A DNA stretch of 64,000 bases from Acidimicrobiia bacterium (GTDB taxonomy: Bacteria; Actinomycetota; Acidimicrobiia; Spongiisociales; ZC4RG35), in contig OZ244034.1 in NCBI GenBank assembly GCA_965215185.1, positions 341,863 through 405,862 on the forward strand, given 5' to 3'. Numbering within the stretch: the first letter of the stretch is position 1; each line of letters opens with the position of its first letter. The notes beneath the pieces are model-generated. The model saw nothing but the letters and a program-made list of their open reading frames with translations, was not told the origin of the DNA and ran no database searches. Positions 7,770 to 33,365 of this stretch are shown in pieces. Both the position numbers and the translations under genes were made by a program.

Positions 7770-7771
7770 CC

Positions 7772-8431: not shown

Positions 8432-8444
8432 CCATTACCATGGA

Positions 8445-12858: not shown

Positions 12859-12870
12859 CTGAGACCTACA

Positions 12871-13144: not shown

Positions 13145-14128
13145 TCACTGGATATCGCCGGTGAGAGCCTGCCTGGGATTCGTTATAAGAATCGTAGAGA
13201 CAGTTTCATCAGAGACGCCTTGCTTACGCAACTGAGGAACGATTCTGGTCAGAAGATAATCATAACCATTACCGCCTCTAGCCCGCAGAGAGCTCCGAAA
13301 ACAGACATCTTGTGATAGCAGAATATGCCTAGTAAAACCTTTGTCGATCAAGGACACTACATACTCAAGAGCCCTGATATCATCAAACGAAGAAGCCGCG
13401 GTTCCAAAGTGATCAAAGGAGACGAAGGCACCTCGGCGTACCAACGATTCGTGATAGTCAATCACATCATTTGACGACATCCAACCGGCATCTGACACCG
13501 AATCGCAGTGACCGATGATGACGCGACACGGACTCACTCCTTCCTCTTCAAGGAGATCAAGTTGCACATGGCCCACCGGCCAGCGGGCGGCGTGCGTGCT
13601 TATGGTTACCCCGGTTCGACGGTGAGCGCGGGCAGCTGCCCTGAACACGCGTTCTTCATGAGCTGTCAGGAATGCGTCACAACCTATCTCACCAATGATT
13701 CCCGCACGTATTCCTGTACCGTCAATGCCGACCTCTATTTCGTCCACCATCCAGCGAGCGAGCTGATCTACGCTGTTCTGGTCAACCCATTCACTGTCCA
13801 GGTAGGGGTGCCTATAAAGCCCGGTTCCCACAACGATGTTCAAGCCCGTCGCTTCACTGACCTGCTGGACCTGCTGTGGTTGACGGCCCATCCCTCGGAG
13901 AGTGAGATCCACAAGGCTTTGACCCCCGGCACTCTTGAAGCGGCTTAACTCCTCCACAGCTAGAGCACCGTCATTCAGCCAACCATCACCACGATACTCA
14001 GAAATCAAAGTGCAGAACACGTGCTCATGCATCAATGTCACTCCAAGATCGTCTGGTGATATCTCACCGAGCACCGTCGTAATATGCTGCCTGCTATTCA
14101 TGGGTCTGGGGTTACAGCATGAAACCAC
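13145..14128 (-). CDS. phosphotriesterase-family (PTE/PHP, amidohydrolase) protein
   Basis: 327 aa. 'VTLMHEHVF' is the N-terminal metal-binding His pair of the PTE family, and 'IIGHCD' is the later His/Asp ligand region. Confidence 0.7.
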   Translation of the reverse strand: MVSCCNPRPMNSRQHITTVLGEISPDDLGVTLMHEHVFCTLISEYRGDGWLNDGALAVEELSRFKSAGGQSLVDLTLRGMGRQPQQVQQVSEATGLNIVVGTGLYRHPYLDSEWVDQNSVDQLARWMVDEIEVGIDGTGIRAGIIGEIGCDAFLTAHEERVFRAAARAHRRTGVTISTHAARWPVGHVQLDLLEEEGVSPCRVIIGHCDSVSDAGWMSSNDVIDYHESLVRRGAFVSFDHFGTAASSFDDIRALEYVVSLIDKGFTRHILLSQDVCFRSSLRARGGNGYDYLLTRIVPQLRKQGVSDETVSTILITNPRQALTGDIQ

Positions 14129-14233
14129 GGGGTTGAATCACCAGGCACGTGCTTCTCGCTGGATCCAATTTCATTAGGCCAGTCCAAGCTCATTTGCCAT
14201 TGTTGTATACCAAGCACCCAGAATGGTGTATTC

Positions 14234-14274
14234 GTGCTCCAAGGTGAACGCCCTGCGGGTTCACCTTGGAGCAC
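14234..14274. promoter_or_regulatory. perfect 16-bp inverted repeat with a 9-nt spacer, between the amidase 3' end and the PTE gene 5' end
   Basis: 'gtgctccaaggtgaac gccctgcgg gttcaccttggagcac'. It could be the amidase terminator hairpin and/or an operator for the PTE gene. Confidence 0.4.
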
Positions 14275-14342
14275 TGTATCGAGCAGCCTGTTTCTGTGAA
14301 TGGACCTGTCGCTCTGTTGAGATATCATGCCATCGACTTCGT

Positions 14343-15923
14343 TCATACGTCGGCACCAGAAGATCTATCATTAGCAGCCTTTTCTACCTCAAACGCAGCG
14401 TTAAACAACAGATCTTCATCGAAACGCCTACCGATGATTTGTAACCCGATAGGTAAGCCATTGTCACCCGTACCACACGGTACCGTTATTGCAGGATGTC
14501 CCGTCAAGTTCGCAGGACATGTATTGAGATTATTGCGGAACAGGCCACGTTGCTTCGCCTGTCCGACTTCCGACTCCTCCAGGGTAGGAAGCCGAACAGC
14601 CTTCATCGGTGTCGTAGGAGTAACAAGCACATCGTATTCCTTGAACGTATCGTCCAGTTGCTGTGACCAAAAGTGCCGAAGATTCTGGGCCTTCGAAAAG
14701 TAGGTACTGCAATACTCTTGCTGCAGATATTTAGCAAGAATTAGATGTACGATCAGGAGGGGCGATAGAAGACGGCCTGAAGCGCGTCGTGCCTTTCCAA
14801 ACAAGTTCTGCCAACCAGGATCACACATACCAGGCCGGGAATATCCTTCGAGGTCAGAATCGACCATCGCAGCAAGCGAATGAGTCATTATGGTCAGTAT
14901 CACCGATTCGCATTGCTTCCACCACGGAAGGGAGATCTCTTGCACCTCCGCACCTTGATCCCTCAGTCCCTCCACAGCATCTCGGACGCTCGAGTTGACG
15001 TCCGATTCCCCGTCTAGCCAATCCATCGATTCCTTTAGAACGCCAATCCGAAGATTTCCGACGCCCTTCTCCCCAAGGCCCTGACTGTATGCCTGAGATT
15101 GGTATGGAACCCGAACAGACACTGGGCTTCGGGGATCTTCACCAGCCAACACCTCAAGTGCTAAAGCAGCATCCTTCACAGTTGACGCTATGGGACAAAC
15201 ATGGTCAAGCGTGTGGTCCACATAAGCGATGCCGAAGCTTGGCACCAAGCCATGTGTCGCCTTGATCGACACGACACCGCACCAAGCGGCCGGAATACGG
15301 GCGCTACCCCCCTGGTCTACTCCAAGCGCGATGTCAACTTCCCCGGCCGCAACCGCTGCCGCGCTCCCGGACGAAGATCCTCCCGCGGAATACGCTGGAT
15401 CATGAGGATTCCTCGCTGGACCAAATTCGCTGGACTCTCCTCCCGCGCCGAAGCTGAAACTATCCATGTTCAGTTTGCCCACGATTGTCCCGCCCGCATC
15501 AAGAATCCTCTCAACGACAGTCGCGTCCATGGATGGCACATACCCGTCCATCAGCCGTGAACCGTTGGTCATCGGGACACCAGCGAGCTTAATGTTGTCT
15601 TTTAAACCAACTCGTTTCCCTAACAGCTTGCCCGATTCTGAGCCTCTCACTAAACAGCGCCGAATGTATACGTTGAACGGATCGCTCTCGTTATCGGACG
15701 GCTCGCCTATCTCACGTTCAGGATATCTGACTGGAACTGAAGGAATGTCTAGGTCATTAATTTGGTCGATTTGCGACAGTATGTTCCAGATCTGATCCAT
15801 ATAGGACTCGGCCTCGTTAGCGGACAAGCGAATATACTGAGAGGCCGCAAGTTCCTGTACCTCGGACAGCTCTGGACACCGCAGCCGCCCATGCAATCTA
15901 TCACGATGCTCCATCTGTGTCAT
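14343..15923 (-). CDS. amidase (amidase-signature family)
   Basis: 526 aa with the AS-family signature 'GGSSSGSAAAVAAGEVDIALGVDQGGSARIPAAWCGVVSIKATHGLV' (Ser-cisSer-Lys triad region). Confidence 0.8.
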   Translation of the reverse strand: MTQMEHRDRLHGRLRCPELSEVQELAASQYIRLSANEAESYMDQIWNILSQIDQINDLDIPSVPVRYPEREIGEPSDNESDPFNVYIRRCLVRGSESGKLLGKRVGLKDNIKLAGVPMTNGSRLMDGYVPSMDATVVERILDAGGTIVGKLNMDSFSFGAGGESSEFGPARNPHDPAYSAGGSSSGSAAAVAAGEVDIALGVDQGGSARIPAAWCGVVSIKATHGLVPSFGIAYVDHTLDHVCPIASTVKDAALALEVLAGEDPRSPVSVRVPYQSQAYSQGLGEKGVGNLRIGVLKESMDWLDGESDVNSSVRDAVEGLRDQGAEVQEISLPWWKQCESVILTIMTHSLAAMVDSDLEGYSRPGMCDPGWQNLFGKARRASGRLLSPLLIVHLILAKYLQQEYCSTYFSKAQNLRHFWSQQLDDTFKEYDVLVTPTTPMKAVRLPTLEESEVGQAKQRGLFRNNLNTCPANLTGHPAITVPCGTGDNGLPIGLQIIGRRFDEDLLFNAAFEVEKAANDRSSGADV

Positions 15924-16025
15924 CCGACTCCTTTACAGGCGAGCTCGATAGCTAGCCGTCTTTCCGATCTTATGCTATTCACTTGTGCAACGCTGGCATG
16001 CATTTCATTATCCTTACAGCACGAA

Positions 16026-16853
16026 TCATTCGCGGTTGTCTTGCAGAGTCTCTCCAGTCTCTATGAGACCGGTTCTTTTTGGCACGTTGACTACACTAGA
16101 AAGAAGAGCTTTTGTGTAATTGGATTGTGGATTAGATATGACGTCTCTTGTGGCTCCAGTTTCTAATATTGTCCCTCGTTGCATCACCGCTATCCGATCA
16201 CTTATGAAACTGACAACGCCTATGTCATGTGCAACAAACAAATAGGTCAAACCGAGCTCCTCTTGGAGATCCATAAGCAGATTCAAAACCTGTGCTTGGA
16301 TCGAGACATCTAGAGACGAAACGGGCTCATCCAGGAAAACAAACCGCGGCTCGATTACAAGGGCTCTAGCAATGCAGATTCTCTGGGCTTGCCCGCCGCT
16401 GAACTCATGAGGGTATCGGTCTGCGTCTGCGCTTTTGAGGCCAACTAGGTTCAAGACTTCGGCAACACGTTTCCGGCGATGTAGCCGGGAAAAGCCGAAG
16501 TTGATCAGTGGTAACTCGATTGACTGCCCAACGGTCTTGACGGGATTCAACGCCTCCAATGGATTCTGCGAAACCATCTGAATCTCTCTTCGGAGTGGCC
16601 TCAATGCCTTTTCAGAGACTCCCGTGATCGACTGGCCTCTGTATCTGATCTCGCCGGAGGTTGGTCTGACTAGTCCCATGATCATCAGTCCTAAGGTGGT
16701 CTTCCCGCCACCCGACTGCCCGACGAGACCGAACGTTTCGCCTCGCAGTATTTGAAGATTGGCGTTCTCGACTGCGACAAATGTGCGGCCTTTGTACCCT
16801 TGGAACTCCTTCGATACGTCAATTACCTGAAGGAGAAACGAGTGCTCACTCAT
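16026..16853 (-). CDS. peptide/nickel-type ABC transporter ATP-binding protein (DppF/OppF-like)
   Basis: Walker A 'GQSGGGKTT', signature 'FSGGQAQRICIARAL', Walker B 'VFLDEPVSSLD'. Confidence 0.85.
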   Translation of the reverse strand: MSEHSFLLQVIDVSKEFQGYKGRTFVAVENANLQILRGETFGLVGQSGGGKTTLGLMIMGLVRPTSGEIRYRGQSITGVSEKALRPLRREIQMVSQNPLEALNPVKTVGQSIELPLINFGFSRLHRRKRVAEVLNLVGLKSADADRYPHEFSGGQAQRICIARALVIEPRFVFLDEPVSSLDVSIQAQVLNLLMDLQEELGLTYLFVAHDIGVVSFISDRIAVMQRGTILETGATRDVISNPQSNYTKALLSSVVNVPKRTGLIETGETLQDNRE

Positions 16854-17902
16854 GTCGGTGAACCCGTTTCAAAGAGCCAACACTTCACTAGTGTGTCATC
16901 GGCTAGTCTAAATTCTGGAGGCGAGGATTGAAAACATCTCTCCATGGCATGTGGGCATCTCGGAGCGAATCTGCAACCTCGAGGGAGATTCTGAGGATCG
17001 GGTAGGCTTCCCTGAATTTGAGGGAGCCGCTTTCCCTTAGTTTCTAGGTCAGGAACGGAATCTCTAAGTCCGATTGTGTATGGGTGTTTCGGAGAGGTGA
17101 GAATCTCGCCAGTTGATGCCTGTTCCACTCGCTGGCCCATGTACATCACGACCACTCGATCAGATACCTGAGCTACGACACCGAGATCATGGCTTATTAG
17201 AAGAACCGACATTCCCGTTTCACGCTGTACCTGATCAATGAGCTCGAGTATCTCGACTTGAGTGAGAGAATCAAGCATCGTCGTTGGCTCGTCAGCTATC
17301 AATAGTTGCGGCTCACCTATCAATGCAAGCGCGAGCATGATGCGTTGATTGATACCTCCGCTTACCTGAAAAGGGCGCAAACTAACAATCCGCTCCGGGT
17401 CCTCAAGATCAAGGTACGATAGTAGTTCAAGGCTCAACTCCCGACCCTCGTCTTTAGTCACTGCTCGGTGCTTCCTAGCTGTCTCGATGAGCTGATCTCC
17501 AAGGCGAATTACCGGATTTAATGCGGCGTAAGGATTTTGAAAGATCATCGCGATCTGTTTGCCTCGAATCTCTTGCATCTCTTTATTGCTCTTTTTCATC
17601 AGGTCATGTCCTTTGAACATCAGCCGACCGTCGACTATTCGACCCTGATGCTGCGGAAGGAGCCTAAGAATGGACAATGCGGTTACGCTCTTGCCTGATC
17701 CTGACTCCCCGACAACAGCAACCACTTCGCCGCGCTCAACCTCCAAACTCATCCCGTCAACCGCCTTCAAGACACCATTTGGTAAGAAGAAGTGCGTGTG
17801 AAGATCGTCGACCTTGAGAAGGGCCCCGCCCCCATTGTCTTCGAGCATTGATGACCTGCTCAATACGACAGAGTCCGTTGTTTCGCTTATCCGGTTGTCC
17901 AC
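16850..17902 (-). CDS. peptide/nickel-type ABC transporter ATP-binding protein (DppD/OppD-like)
   Basis: Walker A 'GESGSGKSV', signature 'VSGGINQRIMLALAL', Walker B 'LIADEPTTMLD', and a C-terminal oligopeptide-ABC extension with 'CRFAPRCP' cysteines. There is a 4-bp overlap with the downstream ATPase gene. Confidence 0.85.
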   Translation of the reverse strand: MDNRISETTDSVVLSRSSMLEDNGGGALLKVDDLHTHFFLPNGVLKAVDGMSLEVERGEVVAVVGESGSGKSVTALSILRLLPQHQGRIVDGRLMFKGHDLMKKSNKEMQEIRGKQIAMIFQNPYAALNPVIRLGDQLIETARKHRAVTKDEGRELSLELLSYLDLEDPERIVSLRPFQVSGGINQRIMLALALIGEPQLLIADEPTTMLDSLTQVEILELIDQVQRETGMSVLLISHDLGVVAQVSDRVVVMYMGQRVEQASTGEILTSPKHPYTIGLRDSVPDLETKGKRLPQIQGSLPDPQNLPRGCRFAPRCPHAMERCFQSSPPEFRLADDTLVKCWLFETGSPT

Positions 17903-18834
17903 GTCCTCGTCCTATGTCTCGGATCGAGAGCGTCCCTGAGGCCGTCTCCTACAACGTTGAAAGCGAGTGCTACGACAATGATCAAGAATCCTGGAACGGT
18001 TGCGATATGGGGCAGTTCCTGCAGAACCACTCGTCCGCCAGCGGTCATGATTCCCCAGTCGGGAGTCGGAGGTTGAACACCAACCCCAAGAAAGCTGAGT
18101 CCAGCCGCCATGACGATCATCCCTCCCACTCCCGTCGATGCGTAAATGATGACAGGAGGAATCACATTGGGAAGCACCTCCCGCAGTAGCTTCCTCCTTT
18201 GAGGGGTGCCAGCTACCTGCGCTGCTCTCAAGTAGTCACTCCCGCGAACTGAAACCGCCTCGACAAACACCACGCGGGTCAAATATGGGATGGATACCAC
18301 GCCGATTGCAAGCATCAGGTTCATCATGCCTGGTCTCAAGATTGTCGCTACTGCTATGGCCAGTAGCACAGGAGGGAACGCGAACATCACGTCCAGGATC
18401 CTCATCGCCAGACCACCAATCCAGCCTGCCGAAAAAGCTGCCATCAGCCCTATCGCGAGCGAGGCTGCTAACGCGCCGAGAACAGGTAGGACTGCTACTG
18501 GAATTGAAACCCGTCCCCCCCAGAGAAGCCTTGTGAACACATCCCGTGCCTGTCCGTCGGTTCCTAAGAAATGGCCCGGGGTTCCCAAAGGGGCATAACG
18601 CCCGACTTCTCTATGAGCTTCATTTGGGCCGTAGGGGGTTAGGAGATCGGCCCCGAACGAAGCAGCCACAACAACAACAATGAGGATTAGGCCGGTAAGT
18701 GCAAGCCGGTCACGAGCGAACGTCCGGATAATGAGTCTGAACTGTCCGGTTTGCGTTGTCGTGAGCGGATCAGTCTGCCGGGTCCCTTTGTCTCGAGCTA
18801 CCGCTCCTTCCAGCACATCTCCCTCTTTTCTCAT
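17887..18834 (-). CDS. ABC transporter permease (DppC/OppC-like)
   Basis: 315 aa, about 6 TM helices, with a BPD_transp_1 region 'YLRAAQVAGTPQRRKLLREVLPNV'. Confidence 0.8.
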   Translation of the reverse strand: MRKEGDVLEGAVARDKGTRQTDPLTTTQTGQFRLIIRTFARDRLALTGLILIVVVVAASFGADLLTPYGPNEAHREVGRYAPLGTPGHFLGTDGQARDVFTRLLWGGRVSIPVAVLPVLGALAASLAIGLMAAFSAGWIGGLAMRILDVMFAFPPVLLAIAVATILRPGMMNLMLAIGVVSIPYLTRVVFVEAVSVRGSDYLRAAQVAGTPQRRKLLREVLPNVIPPVIIYASTGVGGMIVMAAGLSFLGVGVQPPTPDWGIMTAGGRVVLQELPHIATVPGFLIIVVALAFNVVGDGLRDALDPRHRTRTWTTG

Positions 18835-18880
18835 TGCTCTTGGCCGAATTCAGGCTCAACGGGTTCTGAAACTGATAGCT

Positions 18881-19849
18881 TCACGTTCCAGCACCGACCG
18901 AAGCCATCGTTCGCGGGTCGACTAGTCCTTGAATAACGTCGCTGACGAGACTGATCGCGACGAACAAGAGACCGGTGAACAATACGACAGTCTGGATGAC
19001 GGGTATGTCTCGCGCCGCAATCGCCTGAAAGACGAGAAAGCCCACACCCGGCCATGCAAAGACGACCTCAACAAACAAAGTGGCCGTGAATATAAACCCA
19101 AGCTGTAAACCGCTCACGTTTGCGATGGGGGCCACGATGTTTCTAACACCGTGACGAAACACGATAGAGGCTTCGGTTATACCTCTTGCTCTCGCTGCCT
19201 GAATGTACGGTTGATCCAATGCATGAGCTAGCTCGGACCTCGTCAAACGGAAGATCACTGCCATCGGAATTAGGGCAGCCGTCACTGATGGAAGAGCGGC
19301 GTGATGGAGCAAGTCCACTACGTCTGACTCGGCTCCCACCGTGCCAATCCCTGACACAGGGAAGATTCCCAGCCTTACACTGAAGATCCACACAAGAACC
19401 AAGCCGAGCCAGTACACCGGGGCACTCGCCAGTACGACAGCGAATGTAGTCATGATTCTGTCAACCGGAGAAAAGCGCTTCACTGCTGCCAGGATCCCAC
19501 CAAAGAAGCCGAGAACGAACGCTATGGCAAAACTCAAGGCAACCAAGATCGCGCTGTTTACAACTGCTTGTCCGAAGATCTCTGAGACGGGTGTCTGGTA
19601 TCTAACGGACGTACCAAAATCACCTTGAACGAAGAGACCGAGCCATTTCACATACTGTACCGGCCAAGGCTGGTCCCATCCCAGACTCCTTAGCAGCGCT
19701 TCACGAGCCTCTGGTCCAGCGAAGGGACCAAGAAGGAAGGAACTTGGATCCCCTGGCACAAGCTTCATAAGAAGGAACCCAACAACCGAGATACCGACCA
19801 GCATCGGCAAGATAGCAAGCGCCCGCCTGCCTATCATTGGTACTATCAC
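18881..19849 (-). CDS. ABC transporter permease (DppB/OppB-like)
   Basis: 322 aa with 'YIQAARARGITEASIVFRHGVRN' and a typical OppB TM layout. Confidence 0.8.
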   Translation of the reverse strand: MIVPMIGRRALAILPMLVGISVVGFLLMKLVPGDPSSFLLGPFAGPEAREALLRSLGWDQPWPVQYVKWLGLFVQGDFGTSVRYQTPVSEIFGQAVVNSAILVALSFAIAFVLGFFGGILAAVKRFSPVDRIMTTFAVVLASAPVYWLGLVLVWIFSVRLGIFPVSGIGTVGAESDVVDLLHHAALPSVTAALIPMAVIFRLTRSELAHALDQPYIQAARARGITEASIVFRHGVRNIVAPIANVSGLQLGFIFTATLFVEVVFAWPGVGFLVFQAIAARDIPVIQTVVLFTGLLFVAISLVSDVIQGLVDPRTMASVGAGT

Positions 19850-20034
19850 GCTGATAACTTAATCGTTTCCTCAAGACTGCCACAGAACGTGGAGATCTGG
19901 TTTAGCTGAGAGGACCCCGGTTCATCAAGTGCCCGCTGGGGCTGAACTGGAACCACCTGCACCCTCTTTCATCGGACGATTGCCACCATGCTCCGGTCTC
20001 CTGAGCAACTGTGGATGACCGCTCTCGCATGGGA

Positions 20035-20066
20035 TGGGGCCGAGACCCCATCCCATGCGATTACGA
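20035..20066. other. 13-bp-arm GC-rich stem-loop in the SBP-permease intergenic region of the peptide ABC operon
   Basis: 'gcatgggatgggg ccgaga ccccatcccatgc'. The position fits an intra-operon mRNA-stabilising or attenuating hairpin downstream of the SBP gene. Confidence 0.35.
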
Positions 20067-20085
20067 GACAGACTTGAGTCAACTA

Positions 20086-21813
20086 TCAACGGTCAAGCCA
20101 CACAATGGAGTAGTCCACAACCCAGTCCCCGGTTCGAATGAAGCCATTGACATCCGCCGCCATCGCGAGAGGGAAAGTATCTGACACGATGGGGGCATGG
20201 AAGGCCAGTTCGTGACCTCTACGAGCGGCTGCTTCGATGAACTCACTGGCTTCTTCTTGACTTGCAGCTTCATTGGCAGCTATCAAGAGCGAGTCATATT
20301 CTCCATCAATCAGCCCTCCCGAGTTGATACCTGCAGACGGTGACGTGGACTCATACAGCCAGTAGTCGGAGTTGTCCCCCCACGATATCTGGTTCATATC
20401 GACGTCATCCGGCATACCTGTGTACCACCGGCCAACGTACGTATTCCATTCGTAAGTACGAAGCTCCAGATCTATTCCGATTTCGGCCAGGTCTCGCTGA
20501 ATCCATTCAGCCATCTGTACAGGCAAGATCTGCCCGGATCCCGATGTCGACGTCTCAAACACCGCGTCAAACCCACCCTCATAGCCTGCTTCGGCAAGGA
20601 GCTCGCGCGCTCGCTCTGGGTCGTACTCATACCCCGCCCAATCTGGTACAGGGTTGAATGTCGCCGACGTAGACGAGCAGAAGCAGATAGCCGCCTCAAC
20701 TGTACCGACAAGCAGTTCCGCCGCCATGCCATCTCTGTCGATCGCCAGATTGACGGCTTGTCGAACTCTCGGATCGTCAAAGGGTGGCCGCCTGTGCTGG
20801 AATTCTATATACCAAAGATGCGGAGTCGGGCCCGATGCAATCTTGAAACCGTCGTCTTCAAGCTCAAGTATCTGATCCGGAGGCACGACACGGATCATGT
20901 CGACTTCGCCGGCCCTCAGGGCGTTGACGCGACCAGACTCATCTTCAATCGGTCGGAATATCAGTTCATCCACGTAGGGATGGGGAGTCCTCCAATAGTC
21001 CCGGTTTGCCTCCAGAGTCAAATGCTGTCCTCTTACCCACTCGACGAACTTGAAGGGACCGGTGCCAATGGGATGATCCGCGACCTCTTCGCCATACTCA
21101 ATAACAGCTGCGGGGCTAATCATCCATGGATGACCCAGACCTGTTGTGGTGGCGAGCTTCTCAATGAAGAACCCAAAGGGTGCTGACAGGACGAACTGAA
21201 CCGTGAATTCATCAACGACTTCAACAGCCTCGAGATTCTGGAATACTGTCGCGGCAAGCCCTGACAGTCCTTCTCCGATGTAATGATCGAAGCTTGGATC
21301 CCACACCCTGCGCACATTGAACTCGACAGCTCCCGCATCAAAGGGCGTCCCATCATGGAAGGTCACACCCTCGCGCAGTGAGAATGTGTGGATCAAGCCA
21401 TCCGGACTCGATTCCCACTCGGTGGCTAGCCGTGGCACGATCTCGGGCGGGCTGCCATCGTTTGGAACGGTGTAATCGGCAGTAATGAGCTTCTCAAAGA
21501 TCTGCTCGTTGACTTCATGCGTCTGTCCTCCCGAACTCCGATGTGGATCGAGAGTGCTGATCGTTGCTTCCAGCGCTACTATGAGAGTCCCTCCCTGCTG
21601 AGCCTCTGAATCGGCGCTTGTCTCAGCGGGCGCCGTCGTCTCAGGGGGCGCCGTCGTCTCAGGGGGCGCCGTCGTCTCAGGGGGTGCCGTCGTCTCAGCG
21701 GGCGCCGTCGTCTCAGCAGCAGCATCTGCCGCTTCGTCCCCGTCGTCGCCGCAGGCCGCAGCCAGCAACGCCAAGACAGCCATAAGGGCAATGGCTACTT
21801 TGAATTTCTTCAT
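20086..21813 (-). CDS. ABC transporter substrate-binding lipoprotein, family 5 (DppA/OppA-like), with a low-complexity ETTAPP linker
   Basis: 575 aa with a signal peptide and lipobox 'LLAAC', then '(A/P)ETTAP' x5, then an SBP_bac_5-type body. Confidence 0.85.
   Translation of the reverse strand: MKKFKVAIALMAVLALLAAACGDDGDEAADAAAETTAPAETTAPPETTAPPETTAPPETTAPAETSADSEAQQGGTLIVALEATISTLDPHRSSGGQTHEVNEQIFEKLITADYTVPNDGSPPEIVPRLATEWESSPDGLIHTFSLREGVTFHDGTPFDAGAVEFNVRRVWDPSFDHYIGEGLSGLAATVFQNLEAVEVVDEFTVQFVLSAPFGFFIEKLATTTGLGHPWMISPAAVIEYGEEVADHPIGTGPFKFVEWVRGQHLTLEANRDYWRTPHPYVDELIFRPIEDESGRVNALRAGEVDMIRVVPPDQILELEDDGFKIASGPTPHLWYIEFQHRRPPFDDPRVRQAVNLAIDRDGMAAELLVGTVEAAICFCSSTSATFNPVPDWAGYEYDPERARELLAEAGYEGGFDAVFETSTSGSGQILPVQMAEWIQRDLAEIGIDLELRTYEWNTYVGRWYTGMPDDVDMNQISWGDNSDYWLYESTSPSAGINSGGLIDGEYDSLLIAANEAASQEEASEFIEAAARRGHELAFHAPIVSDTFPLAMAADVNGFIRTGDWVVDYSIVWLDR
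21613..21716. repeat. tandem 18-bp repeat (about 5 units of 'gcgccgtcgtctcagggg') encoding the ETTAPP linker
   Basis: Read directly in the sequence. Confidence 0.6.
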
Positions 21814-21924
21814 TGCTTATTCCTTCCTGCCGGGTGCTCGTCGGGCCAACGGCACTCGACTAAAAAAAGTGACCTGGGTCGGCAGATCAGCCGACCTCCA
21901 GTTCTAAATATATAGCTGGGTCTA

Positions 21925-22330
21925 TCAATTCTTCCCTCGCAGGGGCATTATTTCTTGGGCACATCTCAAAAATTGAGTGTTGTTGGGGTTGGTGAATCCG
22001 TGAGCGACGCGTCGTGGGACCTGGAGGAGGTTGTTGATCCCTTCGATGGGTCCGTTCGATGCTCGTCTGCTGGTGTGGTAGGCCAAGATCTCTTCTCCCC
22101 ACGCGATGATCGTGTCCACGATGTCGCGGTATTCGCGGATCTGGCCTGTGGCGTAGAGATCAGCGAACCGTCCCAGAGCCTCGTTGGCCTGATCGAGGTC
22201 GCCGGCTTCGTAGAGTTGGTAGAGTTCCTGGAGCGCGTCCCACGCGGTACGGAGACGTGGATGAGCGTCGACCAGCCGGTCGAGGTGCGCCTGGTGGGCG
22301 TCGCTGAGATGATCCAGTACACTACATCAG
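21925..22330 (-). mobile_element. ISL3-family transposase 3'-end fragment (C-terminal ~130 codons only), left copy
   Basis: Encodes '...DTIIAWGEEILAYHTSRRASNGPIEGINNLLQV..RRVAHGFTNPNN', the conserved ISL3 C-terminal motif. About 355 bp are near-identical in inverse orientation to 26657-26992. Confidence 0.6.
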
Positions 22331-22368
22331 TTACAATCGTCTGGAGAGTCAAAGTGATTGATCTTGAT

Positions 22369-24099
22369 ATGAGGCTAGACCCGATTCAGTTTGAGGTGAT
22401 TCGAAATGCTCTGCTTGAGATCACCGAAGAAATGAGCGCCACCGTTAGGCGTAGCGCGTATTCCACGAACATCAAGACGAGAGCCGATTTCTCATGTGCC
22501 CTGTATGACGAGCACCTTCGCGTCGTCGCTCAGTCGTTCGCCCAGCCGACCCACCTTGGATCGGCCGTCGAAGTGGTGCCCAACGCCATCCGCGAATACG
22601 GTGCTGACAACATTGGACCTGGCGATAGCATCGTCCTGAATCACCCTTACATCGGTGGAGGACACCTAAACGATGTGACCCTCATCTCTCCGGTGTGGTA
22701 CAAGAATCGTCGACTCGGATATGTAGCCAACATCGCCCATCACGTTGACGTCGGCGGGGGAGCTCCATCCAGTATCGGAGCATTTACGGAGGTATTCCAG
22801 GAGGGGGTGATCATCCCGCCTCTGAAATTGGTGCGTAGCGGAGAGGTCGTTGACGAGATCTTCCAACTCATTCTGTCTCAGATACGCTCGAAGCGGGAGT
22901 TCGCGGGCGACTTTCGTGCCCAGATCGCCTCAAATCAAGCTGGAATCCATAGGCTAACGGCATTACTAGACCGTTTCGGCCCTGAAGTAGTCGAGACTGG
23001 GATCGAACAGATTCTGTCCTACACGGAACAGCGTATTCGAGTCGAGGTGGGAGCTCTTCCGCGTGGCGTTTTCACGGCAGAGGGCTACGTGGATACTGAC
23101 GGGTACACGGCTGATCCTGTTCGACTTGCTGTCAAGGTTGTCGTCGATGACGACGGTGTGCTATTTGATTTCGATGGCTCGGATCGTCAGCGGAAAGCGC
23201 CAGTGAACGCTACGTTCGCGATGACGTTCGCGACGTGTGCGTACGTCCTCAAGGCATTGACCGATCCCGATGTGCCAGTGAATGCGGGATTCTACGGCGC
23301 AGTACGCATAAACGCACCCGCAGGGTCCGTCGTGAATTGCGTGTATCCTGCTCCCGTAGTGGGGGGATGGGAAACTCAGATGAGACTCACAGACATCATT
23401 TTCAAGGCGTTGTCCCCCGCACTGCCTGAGATGATTCCCGCAGGTACAGAGGGGATGATCTGCCACGCTGGTTTTGGCGGAGAGGACCCTCGTACTGGCG
23501 AGTATTACTGCTTCCTTGAGACGCTCGCTGGCGGTTATGGGGGTAGGGCTAAGAGTGACGGTCCCGACGCAGTCCAATGCCATGGGAAGAACACTGAGAA
23601 CGCTCCAATCGAGGAGACCGAATCGAGTTACCCCGTCAGGATCGTTCGTTATGAGTTGGTAGAGAACTCAGAAGGTGCGGGAAGACACAGGGGGGGACTT
23701 GGGCTACGACGTGACTATCTTTTTCCCGATCATGAAGTGTCCTTCACAGTCCTCGCTGACCGGGATCGCTGGGGCCCACACGGGCTGTTCGGAGGACTTC
23801 CGGGAACTAAGGCTGAGTACGTACTCGTCTCGAAAGGCGAGACCAGCAAGGTCGGCGCTAAGTCAACCTTGCAGTTGAAGCCAGGGGACCTCGTCAGTTA
23901 CCGAACCTGTGGCGGTGGGGGCTTTGGCCCGCCAAGTGAGAGGGATCCGGTCAGTGTTCTTGCCGACGTAAGAGATGGAAAAGTCAGTGCCGAGAGAGCA
24001 CGAGAGGTCTACCGCGTGATGATTGATCCCAAGGATCTGGTCATAGACGAAGAGCAAACCAGTGTTCTTAGGGGTTCCAATAGCGTGGATAAGCAGTGA
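22369..24099 (+). CDS. hyuB: hydantoinase B / oxoprolinase / caprolactamase beta-type subunit (HyuB family)
   Basis: 'MRLDPIQFEVIRNALLEITEEMSATVRRSAYSTNIKTRADFSCALYD' is the canonical HyuB N-terminus. The ORF track extends to 21955 only because the antisense of the IS fragment is open. Confidence 0.85.
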   Translation: MRLDPIQFEVIRNALLEITEEMSATVRRSAYSTNIKTRADFSCALYDEHLRVVAQSFAQPTHLGSAVEVVPNAIREYGADNIGPGDSIVLNHPYIGGGHLNDVTLISPVWYKNRRLGYVANIAHHVDVGGGAPSSIGAFTEVFQEGVIIPPLKLVRSGEVVDEIFQLILSQIRSKREFAGDFRAQIASNQAGIHRLTALLDRFGPEVVETGIEQILSYTEQRIRVEVGALPRGVFTAEGYVDTDGYTADPVRLAVKVVVDDDGVLFDFDGSDRQRKAPVNATFAMTFATCAYVLKALTDPDVPVNAGFYGAVRINAPAGSVVNCVYPAPVVGGWETQMRLTDIIFKALSPALPEMIPAGTEGMICHAGFGGEDPRTGEYYCFLETLAGGYGGRAKSDGPDAVQCHGKNTENAPIEETESSYPVRIVRYELVENSEGAGRHRGGLGLRRDYLFPDHEVSFTVLADRDRWGPHGLFGGLPGTKAEYVLVSKGETSKVGAKSTLQLKPGDLVSYRTCGGGGFGPPSERDPVSVLADVRDGKVSAERAREVYRVMIDPKDLVIDEEQTSVLRGSNSVDKQ

Positions 24100-24121
24100 A
24101 GACGCGCCCTTCACGACCTGA

Positions 24122-26239
24122 TTGAATGGGAGCAAGGCGAGCATGACAAGCCGGATTGGAATTGACATTGGTGGCACGTTCACAGATGCAATTGTGATTA
24201 ACGAAGCAACTGGCGAGATTTTCATCGACAAGGTCACTTCCACTCCTCGTGATCCATCGATTGGTTTTCTACAGGCGACCAATCGGATATTGGAACGCAA
24301 TGAGCTGGACCCAAGCTCTATAGCATATCTAGTTCATGGTACGACTGTTGCTACCAATGCAATTATTGAGAATAGTCTGGCGAAATCTGCGTTTATCACG
24401 ACGGATGGATTCAGGGATATGCTTGAGATTGGACGGCAGAATCGCCCCGTACTGTATGACCTTGGGTTTGAGAAACTTCGACCGCTGGTACCGCGCTATT
24501 TGTGTTTTGAGATACGAGAGCGGCTCGATGCCTCGGGCAATGTTGTCGTTCCAATTCATGTGGAAGATGTCAAATCAGTGGCCCGAAAGATAAAGGAGGA
24601 GGAAGTTGAGTCAATCGCTGTGTGTCTTCTGCATGCACATATCAATCCAGTTCATGAGGTAACCGTTGGCGAAATACTACGGTCCATGCTTCCAGAGACG
24701 GCCGTTTCGCTTTCGAGCGAGGTGGCACCAGAATTTCGGGAGTATTTCCGCGCCAGCACCACAACGATCAATGCTGGAATTCGCCCAATCGTTTCGCGAT
24801 ATCTTGAGAGTATCGAGAGTCGCCTTCGAGCTGAAAGCATGACAGGTGAGCTTCTTGTGATGCAAAGCAATGGGGGACTGCAGACGTTCGAGGTAGCGGC
24901 CGAGAAGCCAGTATTCATGGTGGAGTCGGGGCCGGCCGCCGGAGTCATGGCGGCGACCTACCTCGGAGAATCGCTCGGGTTCAGCAACATGATCTCGCTG
25001 GATATGGGCGGGACCACGGCAAAAGTCGGCCTGATTCTGGATGGCGTACCGAACGTGACAAAGGATTACGAGGTGGGCGCAACCGCCCGACCAGGAATGG
25101 GGAGTGGTCGCGGTTCGGGCTATCCGATTCGTACTCCTGTCATTGACCTGGTTGAGATCGGAGCCGGAGGTGGATCAATCGCTTGGGTGGATTCAGGCGG
25201 TGCACTAAGGGTGGGGCCAAGAAGTGCTGGCGCTGATCCGGGCCCAGCGTGCTACGGCTGGGGCGGCCTGGAGCCGACGGTGACTGATGCCAACCTCGTC
25301 CTCGGACGGCTGAACCCCGAGTACTTCCTCGGCGGCGAGATAAAGCTCGACGTCGAGAGGGCTTCGGAGGCGATCGAAGGATTGGCATCCCAGTTAGGCA
25401 TGGATCTAATCGATGCAGCTTACGGAATCTTGGAGATTGCCAATGCCGCAATGGTGAATGCCCTGAGGTTGATCTCCATACAACGTGGATATGACCCGCG
25501 CGAATTCGCTCTTGTCGCCTTCGGTGGAGCCGGTCCTTTGCACAGTGGAAGAATCGCCATCGAACTCGGATTCTCTCACACCATCGTGCCGCTTAGCCCT
25601 GGCATCTTCTCGGCATTGGGACTTCTCGTGACTGATCTGAAGCACGACTTCTCGAGAACGGTTCTGCAGAACGTCGAAAGACTTGATCTGACGATCATCG
25701 AAGGGCTTTTTCAAGAGCTGGAAAAAGAGGGCCGTGACCTACTTGGGCGTGAAGGCGTCAAGGAGGAGGATGTTCAAGTTCGACGTTACGCTGAAATGCG
25801 CTACGTCGGTCAGAGCTATGAGCTCTCCCTCGACCTTCCAGATGGCGTTCTCACTCATAGCGACTTGGATCAGATCCTCGACCAGTTCGCCAAAGAGCAT
25901 GATCGGGTCTACGGGTTCAGCGTCCCAGGTGAACCCGTAGAGATCGTCAACATACGTTTGAGTACCCTCGGCGACATTCGCAAGCCTAGACTGAGAGAAA
26001 TCGGGAACAGTGGAACTGGGTTGGAATCTGCACACAAGGGAGCCCGATCTGTCTATTTCGACGAGAGCGGCGGATACATTGAGTGCCCCATATTCGACCG
26101 TTACAAGCTTGCTCAGGGCATTTCACTGATCGGTCCAGCCATAATCGAAGAACCGGATTCTACGACGGTTGTGCATCCCGGCTACAGCGTGAACATCGAT
26201 CAATATGGAAACCTGTTGTTGACCTCGGATGACGGATAG
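24122..26239 (+). CDS. hyuA: hydantoinase A / N-methylhydantoinase A-type ATP-dependent subunit (HyuA family)
   Basis: The N-terminal 'IGIDIGGTFTDAIV' (ASKHA fold) and the internal 'ISLDMGGTTAKVGLI' second sugar-kinase-like motif are both present. 705 aa. Confidence 0.85.
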   Translation: MNGSKASMTSRIGIDIGGTFTDAIVINEATGEIFIDKVTSTPRDPSIGFLQATNRILERNELDPSSIAYLVHGTTVATNAIIENSLAKSAFITTDGFRDMLEIGRQNRPVLYDLGFEKLRPLVPRYLCFEIRERLDASGNVVVPIHVEDVKSVARKIKEEEVESIAVCLLHAHINPVHEVTVGEILRSMLPETAVSLSSEVAPEFREYFRASTTTINAGIRPIVSRYLESIESRLRAESMTGELLVMQSNGGLQTFEVAAEKPVFMVESGPAAGVMAATYLGESLGFSNMISLDMGGTTAKVGLILDGVPNVTKDYEVGATARPGMGSGRGSGYPIRTPVIDLVEIGAGGGSIAWVDSGGALRVGPRSAGADPGPACYGWGGLEPTVTDANLVLGRLNPEYFLGGEIKLDVERASEAIEGLASQLGMDLIDAAYGILEIANAAMVNALRLISIQRGYDPREFALVAFGGAGPLHSGRIAIELGFSHTIVPLSPGIFSALGLLVTDLKHDFSRTVLQNVERLDLTIIEGLFQELEKEGRDLLGREGVKEEDVQVRRYAEMRYVGQSYELSLDLPDGVLTHSDLDQILDQFAKEHDRVYGFSVPGEPVEIVNIRLSTLGDIRKPRLREIGNSGTGLESAHKGARSVYFDESGGYIECPIFDRYKLAQGISLIGPAIIEEPDSTTVVHPGYSVNIDQYGNLLLTSDDG

Positions 26240-26439
26240 CCGGAGAGGCTCGTCACGCCGAACAGAGAGCTGACTGCTTCGCCAAGGTTGCTCTAACGCA
26301 AATCACGCGCACGCCGGAAACCAGTTGGCCCTGCGCGGAAATGTGGGGTTGGGTGGGTTGAAATCCTTGGATTGGGGGTGAGGCCTCGCTGGAATCGGTA
26401 AAGTACCAACTCGCCGATTCGAGGAGGCCTCGATGTCTG

Positions 26440-27050
26440 ATGTTATGTCTGTTCGTCTGCACTTGTCGGGTTCGCGTTAGGAGCGATCGCGCAGTATCTA
26501 CCGGACGGTCTTCACGTACTCGATCGTTTTCACGTGGCGCGCTGGTTCACCGAAGGCCTCACCCTGGTACGACGCGAGATACAACGCCGCCCCCTGATCA
26601 GCGTCCGCCGACCTACGAACCGGATCTGTTCCGGGCCCGCTTCACGCTCCTGCGGCGCGCGGATCATCTCAGCGACGCCCACCAGGCGCACCTCGACCGG
26701 CTGGTCGACGCTCATCCACGTCTCCGTACCGCGTGGGACGCGCTCCAGGAACTCTACCAACTCTACGAAGCCGGCGACCTCGATCAGGCCAACGAGGCTC
26801 TGGGACGGTTCGCTGATCTCTACGCCACAGGCCAGATCCGCGAATACCGCGACATCGTGGACACGATCATCGCGTGGGGAGAAGAGATCTTGGCCTACCA
26901 CACCAGCAGACGAGCATCGAACGGACCCATCGAAGGGATCAACAACCTCCTCCAAGTCCTATGACGCGTCGCTCACGGGTTCACCAACCCCAACAACTAC
27001 GCAGCCCGAGCGATCCTCGTAACATGACCTCAACACCGAGCACAGCATGC
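26440..27050 (+). mobile_element. ISL3-family transposase 3' fragment (longer remnant), right copy, inverted relative to 21925-22330
   Basis: Encodes '...LYATGQIREYRDIVDTIIAWGEEILAYHTSRRASNGPIEGINNLLQVL' and then continues in another frame. The N-terminal two-thirds of the transposase are absent. Confidence 0.6.
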
Positions 27051-27351
27051 CAAAACCCACGATTTCGCGCAGCCTCATCCGTTCCACTACTGGCTAGAGA
27101 CCCTCTGAGTCATGATGGCTGGCAGGACTGAGTGGTATCACGACACTCACATAGAATGTAGCTCAGACCGGCTACGCACACCCGCATCCCAAGCAGAGGA
27201 GAAACAGCAACACCGTGTCGACGAATCAGACCGGGCGAGCCTACGAGGAAGTGAAGGATCCGTTGCGGCTGGCAGGCGGAATATCGATCAGCATTCCAAG
27301 GCTGAGAACGTGGATTCGGGATCGGAGTAGAAACCTGTTGCTGTCCGGTGC

Positions 27352-27690
27352 CTAATCAGTAGTTATCTTAACTCCGAGGAGTGGAGCGTGCTGCTGACAA
27401 CCGTACACGTCCCGATCCCTGGGGCTACCAGAAACCGCTGGTCGTACGATTGTGATCTTGAGGCCTCGAGCTGAATCGTGCCATGCAAGGTTGATTACAT
27501 CGCTCTTGTCGATTCCGTAGCACCGCGAAACCAAAGAATCGGTAATGATGCCCGACATCTTCACTTGACTAAACGCCTCGGCGCTATCAAAAAATACATC
27601 AAAAGTCAGCAAATACGGCCCAGCATTCTTGCTTCTGAGGATGCTTGCGACCTCGCCCAGGGTCGTGTTCATATCAGCTATAGCTCCCAA
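27352..27690 (-). CDS. DUF4387-domain protein (partner of AtuA-like DUF1446 proteins)
   Basis: 112 aa, translationally overlapping the upstream DUF1446 gene. This pairing is a known conserved two-gene module. Confidence 0.55.
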   Translation of the reverse strand: MGAIADMNTTLGEVASILRSKNAGPYLLTFDVFFDSAEAFSQVKMSGIITDSLVSRCYGIDKSDVINLAWHDSARGLKITIVRPAVSGSPRDRDVYGCQQHAPLLGVKITTD

Positions 27691-29038
27691 CAGCTACTTC
27701 AAAACATTCATCTGGCGAGTCGAGAGTCATCAAGTGATGCACGCTGAACTCATAGACCGGCCCGCACGATAGGGTTCCCGGCGCAAGAGGGTATGCCAAG
27801 TTAGCCGCAGTTGCCTTGATACCAGGATACTTGAAGTGATCGATCGATGACCGGACGAAGGCAACGATGGTATCTGCCAGCGTTTGCGACTCAGCGACAA
27901 CCCTGATTAGGAGGCCTACTTCGTGAGCGGGGATTGGGGTGGGTTCTAGATGTCCCATCACTCCATCTCGTCCATACACTACAAAATCGAGATCAAAGTC
28001 GTCACTAAACCGCTGGGCGGTAGCCTCGTGGACGGCGTCGACGATCAAATCAATATTGGATATGAAATACGGATCTCGTGCGCCAGCAATAGTGATCGAA
28101 CGATATCCACGCTGGGTGGCACCCTCGATGAGCACTTCATACCGATCACTCTCGCACCATTCACTCCCGGAGATGTTGACCCACCCATCCTGGGCTTGCT
28201 CGAATTCACTGTTTCCCATCCAGACGTGCCCACCGGGCAAGTACAATCTGGCTGGGTCTGATTCCTCATAAAAGCTTTGGGCGGCGACAGAACGGGGTGA
28301 GCAGACGATGGAGTGTTTGGGCGAGCCGACCGTGAAATGGTCTTCCCTGATTATTCCCGTCATGGACTCGGCGGCACCATGGTCTGCCTCAGAACACATG
28401 GCACCACATTCGAGAATCTGACCCATGTGCCAAGCTAGGCCCTTGGGATAGCCTTCCCTAATCGCCAAAGCAGCAAAAATTGCGGCATCGCAGCTTCGGC
28501 CAGCGATCACGAGATCTGGTTCGAGATCGAGTGCCTCCACTATTTGTTCGACACCCATTAGGCCGACTATGTGAGTCGTTTCTTCGATCGTTTGGACGGA
28601 AAGTTGCTCCTCTGGCCCCAGACTTCTTATCTTGCCGGCACGGAGTTTTCGCTTGATGTAATCCTTGTGCAGCTCTGAACGAACGGTTGCGATGCGGAGG
28701 CTCCATCCACACTCACGAGCAATTTCGTGGGCGATGTCAAGCATCCATTCGATCCCAAAGTCAGACCCGGACGTTCCAGCGGAGCCGATAACCACGGGAA
28801 TGCGCCGTGAGCGGCTGGCAGTCAGAATCCTGCCTAGGTCGTCGGCCGTTGTGGATCGTGCTGCCTCCACAATGCCCCCACCCAGATTGTGTGGACCAGA
28901 GTCTGTTGAGCCTGCATCAATTCCTATGACGTGCGGGTTCAGAGCTAAGTTCATTTCGAAGCTGTCATCAGGGAATCCGAAACCCAGCATGCCCGTAGGG
29001 ACTAGAGTCCGTAGCTCTCGACTTGCCCTGTGGACCAT
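27674..29038 (-). CDS. acyclic-terpene-utilisation AtuA-like protein (DUF1446)
   Basis: 454 aa, about the right length. It has an N-terminal 'LGFGFP' region and is partnered with DUF4387 immediately downstream. Confidence 0.6.
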   Translation of the reverse strand: MVHRASRELRTLVPTGMLGFGFPDDSFEMNLALNPHVIGIDAGSTDSGPHNLGGGIVEAARSTTADDLGRILTASRSRRIPVVIGSAGTSGSDFGIEWMLDIAHEIARECGWSLRIATVRSELHKDYIKRKLRAGKIRSLGPEEQLSVQTIEETTHIVGLMGVEQIVEALDLEPDLVIAGRSCDAAIFAALAIREGYPKGLAWHMGQILECGAMCSEADHGAAESMTGIIREDHFTVGSPKHSIVCSPRSVAAQSFYEESDPARLYLPGGHVWMGNSEFEQAQDGWVNISGSEWCESDRYEVLIEGATQRGYRSITIAGARDPYFISNIDLIVDAVHEATAQRFSDDFDLDFVVYGRDGVMGHLEPTPIPAHEVGLLIRVVAESQTLADTIVAFVRSSIDHFKYPGIKATAANLAYPLAPGTLSCGPVYEFSVHHLMTLDSPDECFEVAVGSYS

Positions 29039-29096
29039 TTCTCTCCTCTGCCGATCCGCACTCCGTCTTTGGTGTGCCAGTTACTATAGCGGCTCT

Positions 29097-29853: not shown

Positions 29854-29900
29854 TTTTTGGGGTCGGGGTGACCAACAGGGCAGCGGCTTGTTTGGCGGGT

Positions 29901-31021: not shown

Positions 31022-31136
31022 GACTGTGATGGGTCACACCAATTTTGGTGGACAAGCTTCTGATCAGGCCAGCAACGCAAACGCCCAGAAGGCGCAGTGG
31101 GCGGTATCGGACATATCCCTATAAAAGACACAACGG

Positions 31137-32171: not shown

Positions 32172-32216
32172 CGGCCAGGTTGAGTTTGGGTCAGACCTGC
32201 CCCGGCCTAGGGGCCC

Positions 32217-33101: not shown

Positions 33102-33365
33102 AAGAAACCTTCTCTTTCTTGTGCGAACTGGGCTGGTGCCTCGCAAGGCGCAAACCGTGACGGCAGGACTGTGACGGGTCACACCCTGTGGGTGGACAGG
33201 CTTCTGATCAGGCCAGCAACGGAACGCCCAGGGGCGTCGCGGCGGTGTCGGACATATCAAGTCAAAGAAACAAAGGTCAGAGTGGCCTCGGGTCACGACA
33301 CCACCGCTGACGCCAATCCTGGCAGCCTCTACAAGGCCCCCCAATACCCACAGAGCGGCCTGTGA

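Follow-up and report, generated by a model that had tools for sequence, protein, structure and literature searches.

Inversion of a chromosomal segment by homologous recombination between oppositely oriented copies of an insertion sequence (IS) is an established process. In the 64,000-nt stretch of contig OZ244034.1 of an Acidimicrobiia bacterium that we analyse here (the window, whose positions serve as coordinates throughout), two inverted fragments of an ISL3-family IS bracket a pair of hydantoinase genes, hyuB and hyuA (hyuBA). With a probability that we put at roughly 0.6, these repeats would be dead relics of one ISL3 element standing at the junctions of a 4-kb inversion that flipped hyuBA in place. 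As such the event is ordinary, a routine IS-mediated rearrangement in a catabolic cluster of uncultured Acidimicrobiia, in a host lineage which is probably sponge-associated. Two reports describe related IS-driven inversions (PMC5495485; PMC10501869). As in other inversions between IS copies, IS repeats stand at both junctions, a hybrid element lacks a clean target duplication and the arms continue to exchange sequence. Unlike in the usual case, the block spans 4 kb within a single operon, both copies are already dead fragments, and orphan DNA at the junctions shows no clean crossover between two IS. A search of the literature on this IS family and taxon found nothing specific.

The other described systems resemble the locus in part. 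The pieces in the window share the sequence of ISL3 elements, whose intact relatives are about 1.35 kb long with a single transposase of about 400 aa and imperfect terminal repeats, but they consist only of a 750-bp shell and a 337-bp internal fragment, neither of which encodes a transposase. The shell recalls miniature inverted-repeat transposable elements (MITEs), having both terminal repeats around an internal deletion and no transposase; in the loci that we fetched, however, it occurs at a single site, its deletion junction never varies, and there is no sign that it moved after the deletion. Composite transposons of the Tn5/Tn10 type also have inverted IS-derived arms around what looks like a metabolic cargo; here, by contrast, the outer end of one arm is not usable, a target duplication is missing, and the would-be cargo is a vertically inherited resident. 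Invertase-type switches use short sites of 10-30 bp and a dedicated recombinase, unlike the 337-nt arms of the window, which have no recombinase nearby. As to the genes themselves, hyuA/hyuB pairs encode ATP-dependent amidohydrolases of the N-methylhydantoinase, oxoprolinase or caprolactamase type. The window has the usual adjacent Hydantoinase_B and Hydantoinase_A genes, but the subfamily is distinct: its order is consistently B-then-A, and the genes linked to it encode a Dpp-type ABC importer, an amidase and a PTE-family hydrolase, besides atuA/DUF4387.

Inverted ISL3 fragments around hyuBA

A repeat search found one long inverted pair between 21 and 28 kb, 21979-22315 being the reverse complement of 26661-26997. 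In pairwise alignment the two arms measure 337 nt and are 99% complementary; their four mismatches (26955, 26960, 26962 and 26979 in right-arm coordinates) all fall in the outermost 43 nt, and the first 294 nt of the right arm equal the left arm exactly. The homology begins and ends abruptly, at identical IS positions in both copies. At 99% identity over 337 nt, a chance origin would be impossible. Both arms match Pfam DDE_Tnp_ISL3 (PF01610; E=2e-20 for the open reading frame (ORF) on the right, E=4e-10 for that on the left), and the ORFs of both encode ...IIAWGEEILAYHTSRRASNGPIEGINNLLQV. The transposase 3' ends of the two copies point outwards, and hyuB and hyuA are enclosed between them. The original prediction, made from the letters alone, had seen these inverted copies, their ISL3 C-terminal coding and their 3' ends facing away from the hydantoinase genes, all of which the analysis bears out. 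Its ranges (21973-22327 and 26657-26992) were off by a few nucleotides, and its length of 355 bp agrees with neither of them. It had also held that both copies lost the 5' two-thirds of the transposase, the right one keeping about 220 bp more; in fact the right copy has both ends and the left has neither. Where it spoke of three HyuA copies, we count two HyuA and two HyuB in the window: the 685-aa ORF at 32217-34274 is IS110-related and not a third HyuA.

The anatomy of the fragments becomes clear from their relatives. When species-representative genomes were scanned with a reconstruction of the transposase C-terminus, 40 loci emerged, mostly in Acidimicrobiia and in 'Candidatus Spongiisociaceae' metagenome-assembled genomes (MAGs). 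The original prediction had proposed to look for the intact element elsewhere in the genome; intact relatives of about 1.35 kb turned up in these MAGs. Those of L009, L015 and L019 (L001-L059 denote the 59 related loci that were fetched) are 1345-1353 bp long, as defined by identical or near-identical copies within one genome, and carry 8-bp target duplications (ACTGAGTT in L015, GAGAAGCC in L019). The intact transposase has 397 aa (L009), with the domains Zn_ribbon_ISL3 (PF14690), HTH_Tnp_ISL3 (PF13542) and DDE_Tnp_ISL3; the copies of the window, 83-92% identical to intact relatives in nucleotides, keep only its C-terminal half or third.

The right element joins IS positions 1-156 (window 26327-26479) to positions 755-1350 (26482-27076) of the 1350-bp relatives, with about 598 bp (IS ~157-754) lost internally at 26479/26482. 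Both of its ends align to the termini of intact copies, and both terminal inverted repeats are retained, the left one (IRL) as GGCCCTGCGCGGAAATGTGGG... at 26327 and the right one (IRR) as ...CGATTTCGCGCAGCCTC ending at 27076. Indeed, GGCCCTGCGCGGAAATGTGGGGTTGGG at 26327 pairs with the reverse complement of GAGGCTGCGCGAAATCGTGGGTTTTGG, which ends at 27076, at about 21 of 27 positions with two 1-nt indels. The transposase start codon at 26433 and the native stop at 27025-27027 are still in place, but the frame is shifted near 26590 and interrupted by a nonsense TGA at 26962-26964. Of the IS, the left copy comprises only ~934-1271: positions 1-933 are missing, as are the final 79 bp with the right terminus, and no terminal repeat was found at either of its ends. 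With a gutted transposase gene on one side and an arm devoid of ends on the other, transposition of anything here would be impossible. The 8-nt flanks of the right element, AACCAGTT and ATCCGTTC, match at 5 of 8 positions (6 of 8 with one gap), which gives no clean target duplication, as would be expected of a recombinant of two insertions.

Among all fetched loci the 156/755 deletion junction is seen at the hyuBA site only. The commonest relics in related genomes are 5'-truncated copies that keep the right end (L017, L018, L025, L039, L040, L042-L045). An independent internally deleted derivative of the same IS (positions 1-101 and 746-1350) lies in OZ246890.1 (L035); it was considered as a copy at the site of the window and rejected, since it occupies another site. 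An intact ISL3 beside atuA in L004 was likewise set aside as a source, since it shares only about 29% identity with the remnants. The lineage contains many decayed copies of the IS, beside genomes with at least 15 intact ones (OZ219922/3), and database proteins related to the transposase are mostly short (150-313 aa). In L029/L031 (OZ219922.1/OZ219923.1, ~5290-10600), two loci of the same layout in another Acidimicrobiia MAG, an intact ISL3 of the same family follows, at a distance of about 250 bp, another hydantoinase pair, which is in A-then-B order and 37-39% identical.

The same arrangement throughout a clade

By exact-protein look-ups and the genome scan, this region was also obtained from other, independent assemblies: L001/L050, L002, L004/L028 (OZ253443.1), L005/L026 (CBDFJY01) and L051. 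Contigs of 0.23-2.6 Mb account for three of them, and L001/L050, on a contig of 229 kb, is 99.35% identical to the window over 17661-29146. All of them have both arms, the 156/755 deletion junction and identical fragment boundaries, and the junctions are the same in at least six related Acidimicrobiia metagenome assemblies. Since the same layout recurs in independent assemblies, the two-arm structure is real and not an artefact of collapse, the event which the original prediction had named as able to undo its finding. The sharing of junctions and boundaries by all clade assemblies places the origin of the arrangement, as far as sequence comparison tells, before the radiation of the clade, whose synonymous divergence (pS) is about 0.012. 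Exact-protein look-ups with HyuA taken from its TTG start and with the ABC ATPase matched no contigs.

Some members differ in detail. L004/L028 lacks 153 bp (window 27025-27177), among them the stop codon of the transposase and the terminal repeat on the right, so that the dead transposase frame runs on into the small ORF 27112-27330 (protein P0007). In L051 (4141-6166, 6x coverage) hyuB is split into calls of 430 and 254 aa, and in L056, of the sister lineage described below, hyuA (11961-13871) is cut to 466 aa while being intact in the otherwise identical L057; both are probably assembly errors rather than pseudogenes.

An inversion in place and its polarity

A sister lineage with 93.5-95.7% nucleotide identity, reached via the PTE and HyuB clusters, gives the comparison that matters most. 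In L056-L059 (for example GCA_028819335.1 and a 1.6-Mb contig) the whole cluster lies on one strand, in the co-directional order atuA-DUF4387-hyuB-hyuA-SBP-permease-permease-ATPase-ATPase-amidase-PTE, where SBP is the substrate-binding protein gene; in L052 and L053, too, SBP directly follows hyuA. The stop codon of DUF4387 overlaps the start of hyuB by 4 nt, ATGA (…GATATATGAGG…), and hyuB is translationally coupled to DUF4387 directly upstream in this lineage. Against L056-L059, window segments 27365-29100 and 14368-21717 are collinear and 22367-26373 is in the opposite relative orientation; the corresponding segment of L057 (9999-14024) is 95.7% identical to the inverted block and on the opposite strand relative to both flanks. 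The arms occupy the two non-collinear intervals at the junctions, 21718-22366 and 26374-27364. The block 22367-26373 thus combines an opposite orientation in a related genome with repeats at both junctions, and it is best read as a derived, in-place inversion with IS-derived repeats at both ends.

Its polarity can be argued from three sides. Because the stop and start codons overlap in the sister lineage, because the IS-free outgroup has the sister order, and because it is the junctions of the window that hold junk sequence, the clade of the window would represent the derived, inverted state. The outgroup cluster in question, L046, is orthologous (HyuB 78% identical in aa) and shares the TTAAP repeat linker of the SBP; its hyuBA genes run in the same direction as SBP, and it is free of the IS. 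The reversed polarity would need a precise excision recreating the overlapping start and stop. The sister lineage also retains, after hyuA, a diverged relic of about 57 nt of the same IS left end, with a hyuA/IS junction common to both lineages, ...CCGGAANNNGTT/GGCC(C)TGCG... Since the same junction follows hyuA in both, the first IS insertion appears older than the split of the lineages, the inversion of hyuBA having then occurred in one of them.

A resident pair in its own order

Were the bracketed pair a passenger, it should stand apart from its surroundings, and it does not. Between lineages, pS is 0.084 for hyuB and 0.102 for hyuA, against 0.096-0.117 for atuA, DUF4387, SBP and the permeases. 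G+C content is uniformly lower, 50-57%, over the entire block of 13.1-29.1 kb, and is the same inside and outside the arms. Since synonymous divergence equals that of the neighbours and G+C is uniform, hyuBA is a vertically inherited resident flipped in place, not an imported cargo; the same neighbourhood surrounds it in every relative.

The decayed composite transposon of the original prediction, in which inverted ISL3 copies brought hyuBA as a passenger from elsewhere, has to be judged on these data. A two-gene cassette between inverted arms with outward transposase 3' ends, all within a block of lower G+C, has the look of one. Yet the left arm has no terminus and it is the inner end of the right element that faces hyuA; the unit is not framed by a target duplication; in the sister lineage hyuBA occupies this very place, lacks an upstream IS and is coupled, through hyuB, to DUF4387; the pair has diverged no more than its neighbours, with G+C alike on both sides of the arms; and the unit of arm, hyuBA and arm occurs in no other context among about 15 related contigs. 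We consider this reading hardly credible and reject it. The broader claim that IS-mediated recombination had captured or relocated hyuBA can be kept in part: relocation stands, as an inversion in place, while capture is contradicted by the pS of the genes.

Nor can the rearrangement account for the order of the two genes, as had been proposed, because flipping the whole pair leaves hyuB upstream of hyuA. The sister lineage and the nearest IS-free homologues (L046-L049; 78%, 76% and 71% identity in aa) are all hyuB-then-hyuA, and this order is an ancestral trait of the subfamily. The pair at 54.8 kb in the window, 30% (B) and 37% (A) identical to hyuBA, is a distant paralogue.

The flipped genes seem to have remained in use. 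The ratio of nonsynonymous to synonymous divergence (pN/pS) between lineages is 0.15-0.20 for hyuB and hyuA. Within the inverted clade it is 0.47-0.56 for hyuB/hyuA, not above the 0.31-0.75 of the neighbours, and both genes are full length. We read them as intact and under purifying selection; full length together with a pN/pS no higher than that of the neighbours suggests that hyuBA is still functional.

Exchange between the arms

The arms have not simply drifted apart. Those of the window share the derived bases 91A and 100A as well as left-type bases at 44, 114 and 180; the arms differ at 7 sites in L004 and at 13 in L005, and L001 and L002 are mosaics. This pattern points to gene conversion continuing between the arms: IS scars would go on homogenising each other long after the loss of the transposase. 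The arms may still be substrates for RecA-type recombination, with occasional flip-back possible. One contig bears on this, L003 (1590 nt, SPAdes, 2.9x), which runs from the hyuA 3' end through the inner IS, the arm and the left outer flank to the SBP 5' end. This is the layout predicted for the flip-back isomer, the arm changing from right- to left-type between positions 114 and 180. De Bruijn assemblers are able to switch paths within such a repeat, and we take L003 as suggestive only of a flip-back isomer. A look-up by the DUF4387 neighbour, made for further isomers, gave three places out of three in the standard orientation.

Could such flipping be a function in itself? A reversible switch would move hyuBA between a co-transcribed orientation (atuA-DUF4387 upstream, SBP downstream) and an isolated one, and would yield heterogeneity of expression at the level of the population. 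The exact flip-back junction of L003, right-type at 44 and 114 and left-type from 180, the mosaic arms across genomes and the fact that orientation alters the transcriptional context of all three units would agree with it. Set against this, the support comes from one short 2.9x contig that may be chimeric, every long assembly has a single orientation, neither the segment nor its immediate surroundings contain an invertase or recombinase gene, and the arms decay at a roughly neutral rate (2-4% apart in L004 and L005). Recombinase domains were absent from the ORFs of 20-29 kb, the IS110-family transposase genes beginning only at 29.9 kb. We regard a functional switch as improbable. A variant without recombinase, in which the 337-nt arms keep hyuBA flipping by RecA-dependent recombination as a population-level switch, is highly improbable in our estimate; if it were true, the IS relics would be kept by selection, as would the new promoter region between the divergent units.

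A proposed history

The in-place inversion could have come about as follows. The ancestor, judging from relatives, would have had a single co-directional cluster from atuA to PTE. A first ISL3 insertion, common to the sister lineage, would have entered between hyuA and SBP. On the branch leading to the clade of the window, a second, partial copy in the opposite orientation would then have been placed between DUF4387 and hyuB. Homologous recombination across the 337 nt common to both (IS 934-1271) would have flipped the segment between them. The substrates would be [1-1271] after hyuA and an oppositely oriented [934-1350] before hyuB, which overlap only in 934-1271, exactly the observed arm. 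Crossover between a 3'-truncated and a 5'-truncated copy would yield at once a both-ended hybrid without target duplication and a doubly truncated fragment. This is the most economical route, and we hold the odds of it to be even or slightly better; we go no higher because of the unexplained junctions, a marginal similarity in a spacer and the lack of an intermediate genome.

Several points weigh against this history. Recombination is inferred as the mechanism, not observed, and the pre-inversion intermediate that it postulates occurs in no recovered genome. For three segments, 27077-27351, 22316-22360 and 21718-21978, no clear source was found, and in the last of them the signal peptide of SBP has been replaced; the event must therefore have been more complex than an insertion and one crossover. 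From the right end of the IS to DUF4387 there are 275 nt, a distance that a simple insertion at the DUF4387/hyuB junction would not predict. Segment 27254-27328 is weakly similar to the hyuA-SBP spacer of the sister lineage (z ~3.5, p ~0.006-0.013, uncorrected), and, with the 5/8 match of the flanks, hints that the 750-bp element may still lie beside its original right flank, which would fit an illegitimate or replication-based inversion better. The one contig with the flipped-back layout has low coverage, and its two sides match L004 unequally (100% vs 99.3%), so that a chimera through the repeat is possible; the long or independent assemblies of the clade, five in all, have one orientation only. 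Finally, a scan for a sigma-70 consensus found no promoter for the inverted hyuBA, with no site upstream of either hyuB or SBP.

The illegitimate inversion just mentioned would have turned hyuB, hyuA, the IS and its right flank (22367-27351) as one piece, by non-homologous breakage or template switching with breakpoints at the DUF4387/hyuB overlap and upstream of SBP. The left arm and the short orphans would then be templated filler, and the inverted repeat a by-product of the event rather than its cause. It is favoured by a left arm that is purely internal to the IS and flanked by orphan DNA, by a DUF4387/hyuB breakpoint sharing only the 3-nt GAT, by the weak collinearity of 27254-27328 with the sister post-IS spacer, and by the flank match (p ~0.03, binomial), possibly a decayed duplication of a single unrecombined insertion. 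However, the similarity of the spacer is marginal and uncorrected for about eight comparisons; the predicted counterpart of the sister SBP-proximal spacer was not found beside hyuB or SBP; inverted repeats at both ends of a block are the classic sign of recombination between repeats; and these arms show clear patterns of gene conversion. We judge this account unlikely, if by no means negligible. A search for the source of the orphan junctions, by blastn against the 59 fetched loci and the window and by local alignment with shuffled controls, gave one marginal match. The 45 nt before hyuB were also compared with the DUF4387 3' end as a possible duplication, the signature of a staggered break, with a result that was not significant.

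Consequences for the operon and its annotation

Whatever the route, the outcome for the genes can be read from the window (Table 1). The old operon would now be split into three units, with atuA-DUF4387 converging on hyuA, while hyuBA and the genes from SBP to PTE diverge from a region of 0.55 kb (21814-22368) in which orphan DNA is joined to the IS fragment. New promoters must lie in this region, by the logic of the arrangement. Segment 21718-21978 must hold the promoter or promoters of the now-divergent SBP operon and probably those of hyuBA as well. The minus strand has a terminator-like hairpin at 21889-21870. At 22332-22337 the sequence TACAAT, read by hand, was dropped as a promoter element, being CACAAT in other strains. 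The locus offers an example, at nucleotide level, of dead IS fragments cutting a long catabolic operon into three units with no gene lost.

The replaced sequence reaches into the coding region of SBP: its first ~32 codons encode another lipoprotein signal peptide than in the sister lineage (MKKFKVAIALMAV... vs MKSLRKWYVVLLAV...). At 21602-21734 the same gene has an 18-nt tandem repeat, giving (P/A)ETTAP about six times in a linker, and this is where homology to the sister lineage stops; the copy number differs among strains (SBP of 563-580 aa).

Three traps for annotation follow. Public HyuB calls of 699-714 aa include about 125-140 codons running antisense through the IS fragment, back to 21955. 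HyuB has 574-580 aa in lineages without the fragment, and the extension, being absent there, is probably an artefact; the true start of hyuB is likely the conserved ATG. The right-hand 'transposase remnant' is a both-ended shell. The B-A order is a family trait and needs no rearrangement.

Table 1. Positions of the repeat arms, genes and junction segments in the window
Feature	Position	Strand	Description
Left arm	21979..22315	-	internal ISL3 fragment, IS ~934-1271, encoding part of the DDE_Tnp_ISL3 C-terminus
Right arm	26661..26997	+	inside the 750-bp element
ISL3 derivative, non-autonomous, 750 bp	26327..27076	+	by alignment to intact copies L009, L015, L019
Inverted block	22367..26373	.	hyuB, hyuA, 87 nt of spacer distal to hyuA, and the first ~47 nt at the left end of the IS
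hyuB (Hydantoinase_B)	22369..24099	+	ATG 22369, MRLDPIQ..., start conserved in sister lineage and outgroups
hyuA	24143..26239	+	Hydant_A_N, Hydantoinase_A, Hydant_A_C domains
DUF4387	27352-27672	-	converges on hyuA in the window
atuA-like gene	27674-29038	-	converges on hyuA in the window
SBP_bac_5	20086-21813	-	start of the remaining ancestral operon 13145..21813
Two permeases and two ATPases	between SBP and amidase, inside 13145..21813	-	ancestral operon
Amidase	14343-15923	-	ancestral operon
PTE-family hydrolase	13145-14128	-	ancestral operon
Orphan junction sequence	27077..27351	.	from the right end of the IS to the stop codon of DUF4387; absent from sister lineage
Orphan junction sequence	21718..21978	.	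165 nt from left arm to SBP start (21813) and first ~32 SBP codons
Orphan sequence, 45 nt	22316..22360	.	between left arm and conserved hyuB start region

Edges of the cluster and other features of the window

The whole cluster, PTE-amidase-ABC-hyuBA-DUF4387-atuA, forms a 16-kb block of lower G+C (13124-29100; 50-57% vs 58-66% outside). Both edges of the block are synteny breakpoints in every lineage examined, and since the neighbours beyond them differ (window, L004, L005, L052/L054, L057), the cluster as a whole may be mobile or lie in a hot spot of rearrangement. At the left edge (12860-12970) a direct repeat of about 27 nt, CCCATCGGTTTCCCGTCGTGCCTCCTG, occurs twice, between a truncated histidine-kinase ORF (12020-12694, HisKA and HATPase only) and the PTE gene. 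A link of this kinase fragment, at 12.0-12.7 kb, to the HATPase fragment beside atuA in L005 was tested and none was found.

Just beyond atuA lies an array of IS110-family material (29099-34300). A motif of about 25 nt, GATGCTYCTATGKTTGYCAAATCGA, occurs there five times (29099, 29122, 29219, 29460 and 29828), its first copy at the synteny breakpoint 29099/29100, and three IS110-type transposase ORFs follow (29901-30905, 31137-32171 and 32217-34274), the last, of 685 aa, having no Pfam match in its first ~400 aa. The plus strand is G- and T-rich at 29001-30000 (GC skew +0.43, AT skew -0.43), which coincides with stacked IS110 end fragments. The IS110 array differs in every related strain, L001 adding IS3 pieces; in L052, L053 and L055, IS110 material adjoins the opposite (PTE) end of the cluster.

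Two features lie farther away. A thiamine pyrophosphate (TPP) riboswitch (8445-8556, plus strand; Rfam RF00059, 65 bits) stands directly upstream of an ABC substrate-binding gene of SBP_bac_6/8 type (8606-9637) and a permease (9742-11304), which are probably a thiamine-related importer. At 43664-45793, on the plus strand, a 709-aa ORF combines an OpuAC glycine-betaine-binding domain, SBP_bac_3/Lig_chan-Glu_bd and an ion-channel pore (Ion_trans_2/Lig_chan). It resembles a prokaryotic glutamate-receptor-like channel to which a betaine-binding module has been added, and its neighbours are a BCCT transporter and a further OpuAC protein.

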